A DNA stretch of 40,330 nucleotides from a virus. Made by a program: the position numbers and the translations under genes. Shown piece by piece: positions 1,977 to 11,966 of the stretch (positions are counted from its first letter, which is position 1; every line of letters begins with the position of its first letter). The notes under the pieces were generated by a model. It was not told the DNA's origin. It was given only the letters and a program-made list of their open reading frames with translations, and searched no databases. Where the stretch lies: IMG/VR virus record IMGVR_UViG_3300045988_047360; one strand, given 5' to 3'.

Positions 1977-2065
1977 AATTTTGCAGAAATTAGACCATGC
2001 TTCCTTTGATTTTCCCGTTGTATTATGGCGGGAGACGTATTTGCTATGCCCTGATTGCAAAACAA

Positions 2066-2094
2066 ATTATAGACTATTATTAGAGCATTGTCAA
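2066..2094 (-). promoter_or_regulatory. Consensus sigma-70-type promoter directed toward the Cro-like early operon
   Basis: Minus strand reads TTGACA (2094-2089), 17-nt spacer, TATAAT (2071-2066). A TTATAGACTATT operator-like 12-mer overlaps the -10. Confidence 0.7.
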
Positions 2095-2149
2095 TCATTT
2101 TAAGACTTTTGTTAGACGTTATTTTAGACTATTTTTAGAGGTGTTAGTT

Positions 2150-2488
2150 ATGGATTTCGCACAATGGTTACAAAGCAAGCAGAAACAATACCACCTCACA
2201 AATTACAGAATAGCTAAAATGGCCGGAGTTCATCAGAGTACGGTTGCAGGATGGCTTAAAGGTACAAAACCGCAAGAGGAAAAAGAAGCTGACGTCCGCG
2301 CTGCAATTAAGAACTACGAAAATAGTCATTCCGAAGAGGGCCAAACCGAATTAAGTAAAAAAAATACGCCCACCGGTGAACCCGATGAGCGCGATGAAGA
2401 ATTTAATATGCTTATTTCTCAGCTGACAGCGGAAGAAAAGAAATTTATCTCCGCTCAGATAAAAGGGATTTTGTCAAATCGAGAATAA
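2150..2488 (+). CDS. CI-like XRE-family repressor
   Basis: AGAGGTG RBS. NYRIAKMAGVHQSTVAGWLKG is a helix-turn-helix. Acidic linker and short C-terminal helix. Alternative GTG start at 2141. Confidence 0.65.
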   Translation: MDFAQWLQSKQKQYHLTNYRIAKMAGVHQSTVAGWLKGTKPQEEKEADVRAAIKNYENSHSEEGQTELSKKNTPTGEPDERDEEFNMLISQLTAEEKKFISAQIKGILSNRE

Positions 2489-2564
2489 TGTCTTTTTCTT
2501 TTACAGTGAGTTGCCGGAACAGATCGGCCAGCTCTTGTGTAGATTTTTCTGCCTGCTCGTTCAT
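2445..2564 (-). CDS. Possible 39-aa ORF convergent with and overlapping the 3' end of the CI-like gene
   Basis: GGAGGAG RBS 6 nt before the ATG. MNEQAEKSTQELADLFRQLTVKEKDIILDLTKSLLSERR resembles the CI C-terminus (EFNMLISQLTAEEKKFISAQIKGIL). Confidence 0.25.
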   Translation of the reverse strand: MNEQAEKSTQELADLFRQLTVKEKDIILDLTKSLLSERR

Positions 2565-2698
2565 CTTCCGCTCCTCCATCCTTCCCATATTCAAACATTT
2601 GTTCTTTGTAAAAGTATATCATTCTTGTACTTGCTTTGCAACTGCAAAATGCACAATGTTTTGGGCCAATAGAAAATAATAAAATAGGGGGAAATTTT

Positions 2699-3787
2699 AT
2701 GGATTTTATTGATCAGTTAAAGCAGTTTTCTAAGCGCGTCGATTCAATGAAAAACAATGTGCAAACCGAAGAAGCAACCAAAACCGCATTGATTATGCCG
2801 TTTTTTTCTATGCTTGGATACGATGTTTTTAATCCACAGGAATTTGTCCCGGAATTTACTGCTGACGTTGGGATCAAAAAAGGTGAAAAAGTTGATTATG
2901 CTATTATAAAAGATGAAGAACCAGTTATCCTCATTGAGTGCAAAGCCATTACAGAGGATTTAGGGAAGCACGATTCCCAGCTTTTCCGCTATTTTGGGAC
3001 AACATCTGCTAAGTTTGCGATTTTGACAAACGGTCAGTATTATCGTTTTTACACTGATCTGGATAACCCAAATAAAATGGACGAAACGCCTTTTTTGTCT
3101 ATTAACATTTTAGATATCCGGGAAAACCAGGTGCCTGAACTAAAAAAATTCTGTAAATCCGTTTTTGACGTTGATTCAATTTTCAGCACAGCATCGGAGC
3201 TTAAATATGTACACGAATTTAAAGATATGTTCTCCCAGCAGCTAAACAATCCAACCGATGAATTTGTGAAGTTTTTCTTGACTGGCTGCTGGACTGGGCA
3301 GAAAACGCAAAATGTAATTGAAAAATTCAGGCCAATATTAAAGAAAGCTCTTAATGACCAGATCAGCGAGCTGATGAATGATAAAATCAAATCTGCGTTA
3401 GGTGGAGCTGGTGGAAGTGTTACAGTCCCGGCCACAGAAGAAAAAGTGGCAGAAGATGATTCGCAAGATGCATCTGCCGAAGAAAAGAAAGTTCATGCTA
3501 TCATTACTACCGAAGAAGAGCTTGAAGCATATTTTATTATTAAGAATTTGATGAGTGACATAGTAGACATCCACGATATCACTTATAAGGACACGGAATC
3601 TTACATAAATATCCTTTATAAATCAAACTCTCGCAAGTGGATTTGCAGGCTTCGATTGAGCGACACTACAAAAACAATAAGCATTCCAAACGAATCTAAG
3701 AAAGAAGTTAAGTACACGTTAGCTGATATATACGATATCCCTCAATATAAAGATCAGCTGCAACAAGTTTTGAAGCGTTACTTATAA
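2699..3787 (+). CDS. PD-(D/E)xK nuclease-fold protein with type I restriction HsdR N-terminal-like domain (362 aa)
   Basis: TEEATKTALIMPFFSMLGY, VDYAII and VILIECK (D..ExK) motifs. AT-rich gene inside the lysogeny module. Confidence 0.65.
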   Translation: MDFIDQLKQFSKRVDSMKNNVQTEEATKTALIMPFFSMLGYDVFNPQEFVPEFTADVGIKKGEKVDYAIIKDEEPVILIECKAITEDLGKHDSQLFRYFGTTSAKFAILTNGQYYRFYTDLDNPNKMDETPFLSINILDIRENQVPELKKFCKSVFDVDSIFSTASELKYVHEFKDMFSQQLNNPTDEFVKFFLTGCWTGQKTQNVIEKFRPILKKALNDQISELMNDKIKSALGGAGGSVTVPATEEKVAEDDSQDASAEEKKVHAIITTEEELEAYFIIKNLMSDIVDIHDITYKDTESYINILYKSNSRKWICRLRLSDTTKTISIPNESKKEVKYTLADIYDIPQYKDQLQQVLKRYL

Positions 3788-3860
3788 AATTTTTGTATAG
3801 ATACTTTGTTTCAATTGTGTCAGGATTTAATACTTAAAAAATATTTTAGGAGATGGGTTT

Positions 3861-4295
3861 ATGAAAAAAGTATTCAGTGTACTCCTTTGCTGCGGCGTAT
3901 GCCTGTCCTTTGCCGCATGCGGCGCAAACAGCACTCCCGGAAGCGATGCAGCGCAGGATCCTACGCCGCCCGATCTGACCGGTGAATGGAAGCAGACAAA
4001 CAGTGATTCGGACGATTCCTGGCAGGCTGCAACGATCACCGATGACACCATTGAGGTCTACTGGGTATCTGATAATGGAGACACGAAGTCTCTCTACTGG
4101 GCCGGTTCCTTCGAAGCGCCTACAGACGACGCAGAGCCGTACACATGGGAATCTGAAAACGATCACGACAAAACAGATTCCGCATTGCTCGCCAGCCCGG
4201 ACGATACCAAAACGTTTACTTATGAATCCGGCGAGCTGAGCTACGAAGTAAGCGCACTCGGCACGACAACAACGGTGCGGCTGGAAAAACAGTGA
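3861..4295 (+). CDS. Secreted lipoprotein (candidate superinfection-exclusion factor)
   Basis: AGGAG RBS. Signal peptide MKKVFSVLLCCGVCLSFAACG with a lipobox-like cysteine. Acidic mature part. Followed by a strong terminator. Confidence 0.7.
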   Translation: MKKVFSVLLCCGVCLSFAACGANSTPGSDAAQDPTPPDLTGEWKQTNSDSDDSWQAATITDDTIEVYWVSDNGDTKSLYWAGSFEAPTDDAEPYTWESENDHDKTDSALLASPDDTKTFTYESGELSYEVSALGTTTTVRLEKQ

Positions 4296-4544: not shown

Positions 4545-4946
4545 ATGACGATTCAAGAAATGTGCAATGAAAAAAGAATTGCTCTGGGCCTGACCCATCA
4601 GAACATCGCGGATCAGGCAGAAATGCCGCTGCAAACCGTGCGGAACTTCTTCTCCCGCGCGTCGAAAGCGCCGTCCATCTACACCACCGCGCAGATATGC
4701 GCCGTGCTGGGCGTGTCGCTGGATCAGTTCTTCGGCATTTGCGAACGACTGACGCAGAAAGAACAGCACATTGCCGATTTGCAAGCCTACATTGCAGATC
4801 AGGAATCTACCATTCAGGATTTGCACCGCCGCGCCCGTAGTATGCGCCGCGCAATTTTGGTGTTAGGCTGCGTGGCAATCGGCCTGCTGGTTTGGTGTAT
4901 TTATTTTGATTTGCATTGCCTTGATATTGGGTTTTATAGGAGGTAA
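4545..4946 (+). CDS. XRE-family HTH protein with coiled-coil and C-terminal transmembrane helix
   Basis: LTHQNIADQAEMPLQTVRNFFS is a helix-turn-helix. C-terminal AILVLGCVAIGLLVWCIYF is hydrophobic. The stop lies 5 nt before the integrase start. Confidence 0.6.
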   Translation: MTIQEMCNEKRIALGLTHQNIADQAEMPLQTVRNFFSRASKAPSIYTTAQICAVLGVSLDQFFGICERLTQKEQHIADLQAYIADQESTIQDLHRRARSMRRAILVLGCVAIGLLVWCIYFDLHCLDIGFYRR

Positions 4947-4950
4947 AGCA

Positions 4951-6060
4951 ATGGAGTGTATCAAATGTAAAGCCCCGCTGCCAGAGGGCGCGATCTTCTG
5001 CCCCATGTGCGGCAAAAAGCAAAACGAAAAGAAGTCGAATATTCACAAAAGAGGAAATGGCCAAGGAACGGCGATTCGTAGAGGAAAAACATGGACAGCC
5101 ATATGGACAGAAAATATTTATATTGACGCTGAAACGAAAGGGATAAAGCAAGTACGGAAATGGAAGGGAGGATTTACTTCAAAAACAGCTGCCTTAGCTT
5201 ATGCGGCTACCCCTTCGGAAGATCCCGTAAAAATTCCAACACTTCGGGATTATTGGAACAGCTGGGTAAATGGCGGCTTTACTAAATTATCTGATTCTAA
5301 AAAATGCGCACAAAAAATTGCATGGAAAAAACTTTCTTCCATTGCCGGCATGCCAGTGGATAAAATAACAATCGATACATTGCAAGAATGCATTGATGAA
5401 AAAGCTAAAACGTATTATCCCGCAAAAGACATGAAAACTGTTTTATCTCATTTGCTAAAGCGTGCAATTGCAGAAGGGTATATTGGCACTAATCTTTCCG
5501 AATTTATTACGCTTCCAAAGTTAAAGGAAACGGAAGCCAACCCATTTACAGAAAAAGAATTAGCTGCTTTTTGGGAAGCATATGGAAATGGTGATAGAAT
5601 TATAGGCTTTGTATTACTAATGATTTATACCGGTATGATGCCGGGCGAAATATTTATCTTAAAATCTGACATGATTGATTGGGAAAAGCGAGAAATTGTT
5701 AAAGCGGGTATCAAAACCGCAAAGAGAAAAGAAATCCCAATTGTTTTCCCAGAAATGATCGCGCCTGTTCTCGATAATTTAGTGCAATCATCGAGTAGTG
5801 CTGCCGGGTATGTTCTTGGAATGAATAAAGATAAATTTTATAAAGAGTACCACGAATCTATAAAAAAAGCGGGTGCAAGAGATTTGCCGCCCTATTCATG
5901 TAGACATACTACAGCAACAGCGCTTGCTCTTGGGAATATTGCACCAAGCGTAATTCAAAACGTTATGCGGCACGCTAAATTTTCCACTACTCAGCGATAT
6001 ATTCACCCGGATAATAAAAGCGCTCATGACGCAATTAACACGATTGGCAAAGGAGTGTAA
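4951..6060 (+). CDS. int: Tyrosine recombinase/integrase with N-terminal zinc ribbon
   Basis: AGGAGG RBS. CIKC..CPMC zinc ribbon. C-terminal catalytic-type motifs (YSCRHTTATAL, VMRHAKFSTTQRYIH). attP lies immediately downstream. Confidence 0.85.
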   Translation: MECIKCKAPLPEGAIFCPMCGKKQNEKKSNIHKRGNGQGTAIRRGKTWTAIWTENIYIDAETKGIKQVRKWKGGFTSKTAALAYAATPSEDPVKIPTLRDYWNSWVNGGFTKLSDSKKCAQKIAWKKLSSIAGMPVDKITIDTLQECIDEKAKTYYPAKDMKTVLSHLLKRAIAEGYIGTNLSEFITLPKLKETEANPFTEKELAAFWEAYGNGDRIIGFVLLMIYTGMMPGEIFILKSDMIDWEKREIVKAGIKTAKRKEIPIVFPEMIAPVLDNLVQSSSSAAGYVLGMNKDKFYKEYHESIKKAGARDLPPYSCRHTTATALALGNIAPSVIQNVMRHAKFSTTQRYIHPDNKSAHDAINTIGKGV

Positions 6061-9985: not shown

Positions 9986-10055
9986 GCCCCTTTTAGGGCT
10001 TGCAGAGCGCTATTGCGTGGGTGGCCGTGCCACCGCCCGAATCCATCCTTTCAGA

Positions 10056-10637
10056 TTATTTTTCCACGGCCTGTGCCAGCTTGATAATGAGATCATCGCC
10101 ATAGCGGTAGCTGTCCAGATAGGTAATCGTCGCGTCGCTCAGGCCCGCCTTGGACTTGAGAATGCTTTTCGCTTCGTCTTTGGTCACTGCTTTCACCTCC
10201 CGATACAGCGGCATCAACCGCGGCAGCTGCCCCTTACGCACCATGGACGCCGTGAATCTGCCGCCATCGTCCCACTGGAAATGCGGACGGTCCGGCAGGC
10301 TCTTCCAGTCTCCGCCCCAGGTGAAGCCCATTTCCTTCCCGATCGCGCCGCACTTGCGGAAGAAGTCCGCATCGTCGTATTCATGGCCCTTGACGTTTTT
10401 GCAGATGTCAAAGGCCAGACCGACCTTGTCCCAATGGAAAGAGGGCGTTTTCTGGTTCGTGACGATCTTTCCCGGCTTTGTTCGCCCCTGCGCGTAAAGA
10501 CTGGCCTGATACTCCAGATCCCGCACCGTCTCCACCACAGCCACCGGCAAGCCCTCTGCCGCGCACCGCTGAATCAACACCCGGCAGTTATGCGCGACGT
10601 CGCTGCGCAGCCGGTCAATCTCTCTCGATTTGAGCAT
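10056..10637 (-). CDS. Endolysin, peptidase M15 (VanY-like zinc peptidase) family
   Basis: SFHWDKVGLAFDI and LPDRPHFQW zinc-ligand motifs. AAAGGATGAG RBS. C-terminal helical extension. Confidence 0.75.
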   Translation of the reverse strand: MLKSREIDRLRSDVAHNCRVLIQRCAAEGLPVAVVETVRDLEYQASLYAQGRTKPGKIVTNQKTPSFHWDKVGLAFDICKNVKGHEYDDADFFRKCGAIGKEMGFTWGGDWKSLPDRPHFQWDDGGRFTASMVRKGQLPRLMPLYREVKAVTKDEAKSILKSKAGLSDATITYLDSYRYGDDLIIKLAQAVEK

Positions 10638-10681
10638 TCATGCTCATCCTTTCCGGGCAGCAAAAAGCCGCCCTGTCAATC

Positions 10682-10709
10682 TTGACAAAGCGGCAAAAAA
10701 TAGTATAAT
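10682..10709 (+). promoter_or_regulatory. Consensus sigma-70 promoter on the plus strand, antisense to the late operon
   Basis: TTGACA (10682-10687), 16-nt spacer, TATAAT (10704-10709). Confidence 0.65.
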
Positions 10710-10715
10710 GAAGCC

Positions 10716-10811
10716 AGAAAAGGCGGTTGCCATTGCAGTGGCGGTCGTCCCTGTTGAGATTTTTGGTCTGAAGGAAACGCCGCTTACCGCCATGGTAGGC
10801 GGTTATTTCTT
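10716..10811 (+). ncRNA. Candidate antisense sRNA of about 95 nt (type I antitoxin-like)
   Basis: Bounded by the consensus promoter at 10682-10709 and by hairpin 10780-10802 plus TTATTTCTT. No plausible ORF downstream of the predicted start. Confidence 0.45.
10780..10811. terminator. Bidirectional terminator shared by the candidate sRNA and the 29-aa peptide gene
   Basis: ccgcttacc-gccat-ggtaggcgg. The plus-strand T-tract ttatttctt overlaps the peptide stop codon and its two Lys codons. Confidence 0.55.
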
Positions 10812-10892
10812 GCGGTTCGTGATCGTGTAGATCAGAGTTGCAAGCGCGATCAACACCAGCGTATATGTAAACATATCAGCAAATGTCACCAT
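10803..10892 (-). CDS. 29-aa hydrophobic peptide, holin-like toxin (Hol-Tox) / type I toxin-like
   Basis: Not in the ORF track. MVTFADMFTYTLVLIALATLIYTITNRKK. GGGAGGTG RBS 6 nt upstream. Has its own promoter. Confidence 0.55.
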   Translation of the reverse strand: MVTFADMFTYTLVLIALATLIYTITNRKK

Positions 10893-10897
10893 CGCCG

Positions 10898-10917
10898 CAC
10901 CTCCCTTGCAGGAAGTG
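10898..10917 (-). promoter_or_regulatory. SD-sequestering hairpin in the peptide 5' UTR
   Basis: Minus strand CACUUCC-UGCAAG-GGAGGUG forms a 7-bp stem that pairs the Shine-Dalgarno sequence. Confidence 0.45.
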
Positions 10918-10947
10918 GACAGCCTTACCGCCTTTTCTGGCATACAC

Positions 10948-10976
10948 AATATACTATTCTTTTCGCGCCATGTCAA
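10948..10976 (-). promoter_or_regulatory. Near-consensus sigma-70 promoter for the 29-aa peptide gene
   Basis: Minus strand reads TTGACA (10976-10971), 17-nt spacer, TATATT (10953-10948). Confidence 0.6.
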
Positions 10977-10981
10977 TTTTC

Positions 10982-11009
10982 GCCGCCCTTCGGAGCGGCT
11001 TTTCTTTTT
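10982..11009 (+). terminator. Plus-strand terminator (UUCG-loop hairpin plus T-run)
   Basis: gccgcccttcggagcggc followed by ttttcttttt. Would stop plus-strand read-through beyond the peptide gene. Confidence 0.55.
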
Positions 11010-11044
11010 GGGGCTGCCCGTTTTATGGGACAGCCCCTATGTAA

Positions 11045-11314
11045 TCACTTATCCTTATTCGGGCATGTATAGCTCAGTGCCCGCGCGCTGTCCGTCAGGC
11101 CTGCCGTGGTGGGATCCACAAACACCGCCAGCACCGCCAACACCGCGGTTACCAACTGCACGGGGTTCCGGAACACCGCTTCTACTGCGTCCAGCACAGC
11201 GCCCCAGCTGGTCATGGTCGTCGGATCAAGGCCGATCGCCGTGATGATGATTGACACCACGCCAACCCAGAACCACGGGTTTTTCAGCCGGACGGGAATG
11301 TTGACCGCTTTCAT
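11045..11314 (-). CDS. Holin, phi LC3 (Phage_holin_1) family
   Basis: VRLKNPWFWVGVVSIII..TSWGAVLDAV..NPVQLV..VFVDPTTAGLTDSARALSY matches the family pattern. Confidence 0.8.
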   Translation of the reverse strand: MKAVNIPVRLKNPWFWVGVVSIIITAIGLDPTTMTSWGAVLDAVEAVFRNPVQLVTAVLAVLAVFVDPTTAGLTDSARALSYTCPNKDK

Positions 11315-11646
11315 TTCAGCACCTCGATATGGTCGCCCTCTACCGCGTACACGCGGCCGCCAATGTAGAAATTGGAATTGCCGCTGCCCAGAGCGGTATT
11401 ATAGGGGAACTTGCCCTTTTCCACATGGATCTTGAACGTGCCGTACATGCCGGACACCAGCCCCCAGCCGGTGACCTTGGTGGGATCGTCGCTGACCACC
11501 GCACCGGCGCGCTCTTCGTCCGTCAGCGTCACCTTGCCCGGATCCAGAACAAAACCGGCGTTCTGCTTTTTCAGCGCCACATTCGCCTGCTCTACCGTGA
11601 TATCGCCCTTGCTTACCTGCATGATGATTTCTGTTGCCTTTGTCAT
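11311..11646 (-). CDS. Hypothetical protein (111 aa) between XhlA-like gene and holin
   Basis: AGGAGG RBS before MTKATEIIMQVSKGDITVEQ. ATGA-type coupling to the holin gene. Confidence 0.55.
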   Translation of the reverse strand: MTKATEIIMQVSKGDITVEQANVALKKQNAGFVLDPGKVTLTDEERAGAVVSDDPTKVTGWGLVSGMYGTFKIHVEKGKFPYNTALGSGNSNFYIGGRVYAVEGDHIEVLK

Positions 11647-11669
11647 AGTAATTCCTCCTGAAAAAATTT

Positions 11670-11966
11670 TTACAGCCCCGCACCGGTCAGCAGATATGCC
11701 ACCACGGCGGCGGCAATCGCCCACACAATCTTGTCCACAAGGTTGTCCCAGCGCTTGGCAGGCTTGTCGGTTAATGCCCGGACATCGGTTTTGATCTCTC
11801 CGATGTCCTTTTTCATGTTTGCCTGATCGGCGGCCAGCTCCCGGACGGACGCTGTCAGCTCCATCAGTGCTTTCTGGTCTTCCTCCAGCTGCTTAATGCG
11901 CCCCTCGTTGCGCACGCTTCGATCCTCGGTTTGCCGCCAGTTCAGCGACAGTTCTTCCAGCGTCAT
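11670..11966 (-). CDS. xhlA: XhlA-like lysis-associated membrane protein
   Basis: Coiled-coil (IKQLEEDQKALMELTASVRELAADQANMKKDIGEIKTDV) then a C-terminal TM helix (IVWAIAAAVVAYLLTG). Alternative start at 11984. Confidence 0.55.
   Translation of the reverse strand: MTLEELSLNWRQTEDRSVRNEGRIKQLEEDQKALMELTASVRELAADQANMKKDIGEIKTDVRALTDKPAKRWDNLVDKIVWAIAAAVVAYLLTGAGL

Follow-up and report, generated by a model that had tools for sequence, protein, structure and literature searches.

Why should a phage carry two near-perfect promoters, pointing at each other, between its holin and endolysin genes? The question is raised by positions 10662-11009 of the IMG/VR virus record IMGVR_UViG_3300045988_047360, a stretch of 40,330 nucleotides (nt) that was analysed as a whole and is called the window below. 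Within these limits lie two facing promoters, an open reading frame (ORF) of 29 amino acids (aa), a hairpin that encloses a Shine-Dalgarno (SD) sequence, and three terminators. An original prediction had seen here a unit like a type I toxin-antitoxin (TA) module, with a convergent antisense RNA that overlaps the toxin mRNA at its 3' end, as in the bsrG/SR4 and txpA/RatA loci. Our computational analysis supports this core reading throughout, on the strength of a conserved and portable cassette, a peptide under purifying selection, kept promoters, strand-specific RNA structure and a likeness to the SprG1 toxin. We think it probable that a temperate phage of gut Clostridia has here, as a moron, a self-contained type I TA cassette that belongs to the TxpA/BsrG/SprG (Hol-Tox-like) class.

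Is the small ORF a gene at all? It runs on the minus strand from 10892 to 10803 (MVTFADMFTYTLVLIALATLIYTITNRKK), and translation gives, just as originally described, a hydrophobic 29-aa peptide: a single transmembrane helix is predicted, and the basic tail ends in NRKK. At least 18 variants of the peptide were collected. They follow the pattern M-V-T-[YF]-x-D-[ML]-F-T-Y-[TS]-L-V-L-I-[GA]-L-A-x-L...[KR]KK, with conservative substitutions. The pairwise ratios of non-synonymous to synonymous substitution rates were all between 0.1 and 0.5 (one pair had no non-synonymous change), and the variable columns numbered 13, 11 and 22 at codon positions 1, 2 and 3, respectively. Judged from these sequence comparisons, the peptide ORF is a real gene under purifying selection. 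A transmembrane helix and a charged C-terminus in fewer than 60 aa, the features by which type I toxins are recognised (small, hydrophobic, charged C-terminus; PMC6563280), are kept in at least 18 variants.

A longer ORF of 57 aa with a TTG start was rejected as a gene. In group 2 of the related viral contigs a frameshift interrupts its upstream part, yet the nucleotide sequence there is conserved, which indicates that this part is 5' untranslated region (UTR) and that the ATG at 10892 is the start codon. The artefactual ORF was nevertheless used as a carrier query, the 29-aa peptide alone being too short; in a collection of 5.8 billion proteins it retrieved only six relatives, all unnamed. 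Three public gene calls for the group 1 peptide (P0004, P0005 and P0006, of 35, 33 and 72 aa) have frameshifted C-termini, their KK-stop being lost or read through; they have either decayed or been misassembled. No further copy of the peptide family was found elsewhere in the window.

To which class does the peptide belong? Aligned with hhalign, the family profile gave with the 31-aa form of SprG1 a probability of 95.9% and a score of 35.6, over 30 colinear columns with 30% identity. The scores of 200 shuffles against the same profile were 8.8-10.6, with a standard deviation of 2.3 and a maximum of 16.9, so that SprG1 stands about 11 standard deviations above them. The score with BsrG was 19.2, and hhalign found no similarity to Fst (0.3%), Hok (0.9%), PepA1 or TisB. 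SprG1, BsrG and TxpA all belong to the Pfam family Hol_Tox; the cassette probably works like, and is distantly related to, the class that they form.

The two promoters were found where the original prediction had placed them. The one for the antisense RNA (TTGACA-16-TATAAT, 10682-10709, plus strand) agrees with the consensus at 12 of 12 positions and has a predicted start near A10716; the toxin promoter (TTGACA-17-TATATT, 10976-10948, minus strand) agrees at 11 of 12, with a predicted start near G10941. As to the original rough estimate that two such promoters would hardly occur together by chance, sigma-70-type sites scoring at least 11/12 are rare: they number three on both strands of the whole 40-kb window, two of them being the cassette promoters, against an expectation of 0.43 per window in composition-preserving block shuffles. 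In the related groups the toxin promoter keeps its TTGACA, with TAAGAT, TATAAT or TATGAT as the -10 box and with different spacers. An equivalent antisense promoter (TTGACA-16/18-TAnnnT), with its start 72-90 nt past the stop codon, is present in 19 of the 21 peptide lineages, where this distance is kept while the intervening sequence varies.

The RNA predicted to start at the plus-strand promoter, the putative antitoxin, would be about 95 nt long (10716..10812) and consist of two stem-loops, SL1 and SL2, and a terminator, SL3. Its fold has an energy of -40.2 kcal/mol (z = -3.06). The consensus structure, derived from 11 distinct close relatives, comprises 31 pairs, of which three in SL2 covary. 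G.U pairs make up 24-30% of the paired cells, which implies that the helices form on the plus strand only: there, 97-99% of the cells are paired versus 67-76% on the toxin strand, and the minimum free energy of the region is -41 to -47 kcal/mol versus -28 to -35 kcal/mol. The terminator (10779..10812) has a hairpin at 10779-10803 and a tail TATTTCTT (U-tract UUAUUUCUU), with an energy of -19.1 kcal/mol. In the window this tail is complementary to the Lys-Lys-stop codons of the peptide, so that the earlier observation of a T-tract built on these codons was correct, and it applies widely: the U-tract overlaps the stop and preceding codons in all 23 distinct antisense RNAs, the latter being Lys codons in most lineages. 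A conserved promoter, a strand-specific structure and a terminator thus describe a predicted cis-encoded antisense RNA gene, the product of which would be complementary over its entire length of about 95 nt to the 3' UTR of the toxin mRNA, including the last codons and the 3' arm of a helix, P1, that is described below. In one Oscillibacter metagenome-assembled genome (MAG), at locus L055, a second antisense RNA region (terminator remnant, RNA body and -10 box, without a toxin ORF) lies behind a complete cassette, about 210-330 nt past the peptide start, and may be an orphan antitoxin.

Where would the toxin mRNA end? According to the original prediction, it was an RNA of about 170 nt which shared with the antisense RNA a bidirectional terminator, the central hairpin. 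Read on the toxin strand, this hairpin reaches only -11.8 kcal/mol and lacks a U-tract, versus -19.1 kcal/mol and a U-tract on the plus strand; there is therefore no shared bidirectional terminator in the window, and this part of the scheme had to be given up. The arrangement does hold for a distant subgroup (L053, L055, L058 and L059). A strong terminator, overlooked earlier, is found further on at 10662..10694 of the minus strand: a hairpin at 10694-10667 with a 12-bp stem, followed by UUUUU, for an energy of -20.6 kcal/mol. The -35 box of the antisense promoter falls within its stem, and the terminator directly precedes the ribosome-binding site (RBS) of the endolysin gene, ending about 25 nt before the start codon of the latter. 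In the 13 distinct mRNAs that were aligned, 92% of its cells are paired, and an equivalent hairpin with a T-run can be read from the sequences of several distant relatives. Given the covariation of P1 and the conservation of this outer terminator, the predicted toxin mRNA most likely ends at 10694-10667 and not at the central hairpin. With its 5' UTR, its 29 codons and a 3' UTR extending over the whole antisense gene, it would then measure about 280 nt (10941..10662, minus strand); the corresponding fold has an energy of -117.9 kcal/mol (z = -7.9).

At the other end of the cassette, transcription in the antisense direction meets the second plus-strand terminator of the original prediction, which is indeed present (10982..11009; GCCGCCCTTCGGAGCGGC then TTTTCTTTTT, a hairpin at 10982-10999 and a T-tract) and forms the left border. 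Viral groups 1 and 2 have a hairpin and an A/T tract at the same place, with loop and stem changed. Directly past the holin stop codon, at 11010-11037, the window has an extra 10-bp hairpin (GGGGCTGCCC...GGGACAGCCCC) that has no counterpart in the related groups.

The original prediction had also pointed out that both RNAs open with the same 15 nt. The repeat, GCCAGAAAAGGCGGT, is there, at 10713-10727 of the plus strand and 10941-10927 of the minus strand, and it takes on a meaning in the structure of the toxin mRNA. In the folded mRNA the 5' arm of P1 (GCCAGAAAAGGCGGU, 10927..10941, minus strand) pairs with a 3' arm in the 3' UTR (ACCGCCUUUUCUGGC, 10727..10713, minus strand), the plus-strand bases of which begin the antisense RNA. 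Since the 3' arm lies under the antisense gene, the antisense RNA and the toxin mRNA necessarily share their first bases. Every group-A representative has P1 in its minimum-energy fold. Eight of its 15 base pairs are changed on both sides, and 96.9% of the cells are paired among the 13 distinct mRNAs, slid controls for the mRNA structure giving 38-54% (a whole-structure figure). The similarity of the 5' ends within modules is significant in most lineages and higher than between modules; in distant subfamilies the repeat sequences are wholly different, yet the 5' ends are matched inside each module. In structural terms, the same 15 nt is one arm of a predicted covarying 5'-3' helix of the toxin mRNA.

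The repeats could also be thought of as DNA operators for a regulator of both promoters, or as the result of chance or of some repeat, without any role as RNA. They do occupy the same position relative to the two -10 boxes, and a palindromic operator pair would make both copies covary as well. Against this, no regulator gene accompanies the cassette across its many contexts, and the one-sided changes are mostly compatible with G.U pairing on the toxin strand (10 wobble versus 6 unpaired cells). The repeats are matched within each module however much they differ between subfamilies, and the P1 helix of bsrG, which was probed, is a direct RNA precedent. We regard this explanation as very improbable.

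A second structure of the toxin mRNA concerns its translation. The SD sequence is enclosed in a hairpin with an 8-bp stem (CACUUCCU / GGGAGGUG, 10898..10917, minus strand), and the pairing of CACUUCC with GGAGGUG, which had been proposed from inspection, is part of the minimum-energy fold. Among the 13 mRNAs, 99% of the cells of this hairpin are paired, and the changes are of the wobble type only. The distant relatives, as read from their sequences, have other leaders that still pair with their own SD. When the 3' UTR was masked in constrained folding of 7 representatives, the SD hairpin was unchanged and no extension of the helix of the kind caused by SR4 was predicted; hence, an SR4-like effect on translation is not expected from the model. 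At locus L051 a second cassette, with its own TTGACA-17-TAAAAT promoter, is found about 250-400 nt past the peptide start. There, a very similar SD-sequestering leader (GCCACTTCCTTGCAAAAGGAGGTG) precedes an unrelated peptide (MGDKRRAQALRFAVCIIMIL...), and leaders of this type may serve more than one kind of small ORF.

How widespread is the cassette, and does it depend on its neighbours? It was found at 68 other loci, namely 47 IMG/VR viral contigs (from a search seeded with the ORF) and 21 genome loci (from a search seeded with the alignment of variants). The latter are nearly all from Clostridia, mostly from gut MAGs of Oscillospiraceae/Oscillibacter. L050, in the human-gut genome MGYG-HGUT-02250, is one of the modules that are almost identical to that of the window. 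The conserved alignment spans from the upstream to the downstream hairpin, and the genes on either side are not conserved. In group 1, a holin gene is upstream and an amidase-type endolysin gene downstream; in group 2, tail-fibre-like genes are upstream and a phrog_4105 gene is downstream, with the lysis genes after it. The genome copies have as neighbours rml genes (L053), thrC (L060), an integrase and an XRE gene (L059) or ParA/ParB genes (L063). With conserved borders and varied neighbours, the cassette behaves as an autonomous module, or moron, unlike a dedicated part of a lysis operon. No match was obtained when the region was compared by blastn with the INPHARED phages, or when a consensus-like family peptide was compared by tblastn with phages and PLSDB plasmids, a search in which the low-complexity filter may mask matches.

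Two observations touch on how the cassette moves. Its right edge (CCGGAAAGGAG / CCGGAAAGAGAG, 10640-10662 in the window, with equivalents in L001, L008 and L048) is conserved and serves as the SD of the following gene, whichever this is: M15 endolysin, amidase endolysin or phrog_4105. The edge having this double function, the recombination boundary would be just beyond that RBS. At locus L054 (DHMK01000032.1, Clostridiales bacterium UBA4644), at least two complete cassettes, slightly diverged, are arranged in tandem with the 3' part of a third.

The genes that flank the cassette in the window bring up the question of lysis. On the left is the holin gene (11314..11045, minus strand; PF04531, 1e-17; phrog_297) and on the right the endolysin gene, of the Peptidase_M15_4 type (10637..10056, minus strand), the SD of which, GGAAAGGA, is at the right edge of the cassette; both are outside it. 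The peptide might accordingly be a lysis accessory (mini-holin, antiholin or lysis enhancer), while a gate on peptide and endolysin, made up of the facing promoter, its antisense RNA and the two terminators, would set the time of lysis. In favour of it are the location of the cassette, which in the window and in group 1 separates the holin gene from the endolysin gene and in group 2 is a short way upstream of the lysis genes, the -20.6 kcal/mol terminator right before the endolysin RBS, and the help that hokW-sokW gives to lysis, doubling the release of phage Sp5 (PMC8621323). Moreover, no sigma-70-like promoter was found between the cassette and the endolysin gene, which agrees with the original statement that the latter has no promoter of its own and means that its transcription would read through the cassette. 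The holin profiles are of little help to this explanation, because the peptide has no Pfam holin match and its only PHROG match annotated as holin, phrog_3488, is not significant (E = 0.18). It has to contend, above all, with the copies that have no lysis genes nearby (those next to rml, thrC, integrase/XRE and ParA/ParB), with the tandem copies of L054, and with a cassette that is insulated on both sides and has two promoters of the constitutive host type. A dedicated role in lysis has, in our opinion, a small chance of being right.

A related possibility is that a TA module was co-opted, here and in group 1, as a gate of the lysis operon, a lysis timer in effect. If this were true, late transcripts coming from the holin gene would cross a facing constitutive promoter and a terminator that doubles as its -35 region, and would thereby gain an antisense target; the output of endolysin and toxin would then be set by late transcription versus antisense RNA. 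We consider such a co-option improbable. Lysis timing would be at most a secondary and lineage-specific consequence of the cassette, and we doubt even this.

Taking the locus as a type I TA cassette, its working may be pictured as follows. The host-type promoter at 10976-10948 (minus strand) would make the toxin mRNA of about 280 nt. With its SD locked in a hairpin and its first 15 nt paired to the 3' UTR through P1, this RNA would be compact and poorly translated; it would encode the single-helix membrane peptide of 29 residues with its Lys-Lys tail. The facing promoter at 10682-10709 (plus strand) would give rise to the antisense RNA, about 95 nt long and highly structured. As this pairs along the toxin 3' UTR, P1 would be opened and a long duplex formed that could be cleaved by RNase III, as is the case with RatA and SR4. 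Cleavage of the duplex would keep toxin synthesis off as long as the cassette is present, whereas loss of the element, or a drop in antisense RNA, would let the membrane peptide be made. The outer terminators would insulate the cassette on both sides. In this scheme we infer the ends of the transcripts, the toxicity, the neutralisation by RNase III and the biological role, whether maintenance of the prophage or element, or help in lysis.

Several points weigh against this reading. The original prediction had proposed a search with the PF16935 (Hol_Tox) model: none of the 18 family peptides matched it, even at E<=10, while the controls SprG1, BsrG and TxpA scored 31-38 bits for a gathering score of 23.3 bits, and the peptide family is thus outside PF16935 as currently defined. 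None of the family peptides matched the NCBIfam toxin models either. The homology relies on a single profile-sequence comparison of short transmembrane peptides. The covariation of P1 fits equally well with selection for identical RNA 5' ends, for example for a purine-rich motif (compare SprF1, for which a ribosome-binding 5' end is reported; PMC10579593). The SD hairpin being indifferent in silico to masking of the 3' UTR, the folds show no way in which the toxin would come to be translated or the antisense RNA would affect translation. Three phage lineages have the cassette within the lysis genes or next to them, and this could indicate a role in lysis instead. Lastly, the transcripts and the toxicity of the cassette are predictions, and some related small proteins, such as YhzE-2, are not toxic when overproduced (PMC2887945).

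This last point leads to another explanation, in which the locus encodes a small membrane protein and its cis-antisense regulator, and not a TA pair. The peptide would be harmless and act, for instance, in superinfection exclusion or in the modulation of a host transporter. Purifying selection indeed shows importance, not toxicity; no curated toxin model was matched; and, besides the type I-like YhzE-2, TxpA itself is non-toxic when overproduced in Escherichia coli (PMC2887945). A harmless peptide would, on the other hand, have to be reconciled with a specific and colinear similarity to SprG1(31), which is a proven membrane toxin (PMC10579593), with several design features in common with bsrG/SR4, and with a spread over mobile elements and a tandem arrangement that are typical of addiction modules. 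We find it unlikely, and we keep the type I TA cassette as our reading of the locus.

The rest of the window fits a prophage. It encodes a tyrosine integrase (4906-6060, plus strand), which has an N-terminal zinc ribbon, and an antirepressor, and their presence makes the phage temperate; its host is gut Clostridia. Positions 2001-4000 and 5001-6000 have a G+C fraction of 0.38-0.39 versus about 0.52 for the phage, and this low-GC part encodes the integrase as well as a protein with an HSDR_N domain (2636-3787, plus strand); these stretches are probably the integration/cargo end of the prophage. The third promoter of at least 11/12 in the window (2066-2094, minus strand) scores 12/12. Around it, an HTH/XRE-like (HTH, helix-turn-helix) ORF (2141-2488, plus strand) diverges from minus-strand ORFs for a small Cro-like HTH protein (about 1720-1916) and a Bro-N/ANT antirepressor (955-1713), and the region looks like a lysogeny switch.

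From the above analysis, a family of probable type I modules emerges whose members are found in Oscillospiraceae of the gut and in the phages of these bacteria; for this clade, the literature that we read describes none, and the BsrG/SprG design would extend from Bacilli to Clostridia. Such modules are systematically missed by annotation, and 29 aa is below the limit of most gene callers. The peptide had no name and no Pfam or Rfam match in the resources searched; an Rfam scan of 10000-11700 (E<=10) returned two chance-level matches (E = 0.25 and 5.1) to unrelated families. The profile and the architecture can be used to annotate further copies, and the window offers a natural case of such a cassette, with a strong terminator, wedged between holin and endolysin.

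How does the cassette compare with known systems? The hok mRNA is kept inert by the pairing of its 5' and 3' ends, a fold-back inhibition. The ends of the toxin mRNA are predicted to pair here too, and hok/sok has a prophage version, hokW-sokW, that aids lysis and phage release (PMC8621323). The differences are that the peptides are not similar, that Sok pairs with the 5' region/leader and not with the 3' UTR, and that the hosts of hok/sok are Gram-negative. The par locus of the Enterococcus plasmid pAD1 (fst/RNA II) is likewise convergent, with 3' ends that overlap at the terminator and with repeats at the 5' ends (PMC3834814). The comparison with it that was originally drawn stops there: no similarity to the Fst peptide was detected (the 0.3% given above), and the repeats of par are direct, which makes the RNA 5' ends complementary, whereas those of the window are inverted and the RNA 5' ends identical.

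Closer systems are found among the prophage type I modules, which are known from the same setting as the cassette (PMC6562991, PMC7699646). In Clostridioides difficile, CD0956.2/RCd10, CD0977.1/RCd11 and others have been shown to play a role in prophage maintenance (PMC6563280, PMC7699646). Like the cassette, they belong to prophages of Clostridia and consist of convergent overlapping genes, with a toxin that is hydrophobic at the N-terminus and Lys-rich at the C-terminus. These toxins, compared here by description only, are longer, at 34-53 aa, and reportedly lack homologues among other type I toxins. The best peptide match comes from sprG1/SprF1 of Staphylococcus aureus, where the toxin mRNA is likewise overlapped at its 3' end by the antisense RNA, and the antitoxin RNA begins with a purine-rich stretch (PMC10579593); sprG1 differs in giving two peptides, of 44 and 31 aa, from two starts, against one for the ORF of the window.

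By architecture, bsrG/SR4 of the Bacillus subtilis prophage SPbeta is the nearest counterpart, and bsrE/SR5 and txpA/RatA resemble the cassette in the same way. Probing of the bsrG mRNA showed that nt 1-35 pair with nt 232-262 as P1, that the SD is in a stem and that the terminator comes after P1 (PMC3834814); SR4 is complementary to the 3' part of this mRNA, and its binding frees nt 1-33 (PMC3834814; PMC6562991). The two systems are set apart by their antisense RNAs (about 95 nt with three stem-loops in the window, four in SR4), by their hosts (Clostridia, Oscillospiraceae, versus Bacilli) and by the extension of the SD helix on antisense binding, a trait of SR4 that was not predicted here. 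The family profile, too, reached only 19.2 with BsrG and the family was missed by PF16935, and it is known from sequence alone. The predicted design is otherwise the same: a prophage-borne gene for a one-helix peptide with a Lys-rich C-terminus, a convergent antisense RNA that can pair with the toxin mRNA in its 3' part, a 5'-3' helix P1 with its 3' arm under the antisense RNA, an SD enclosed by a stem and, beyond P1, a distinct terminator for the toxin.

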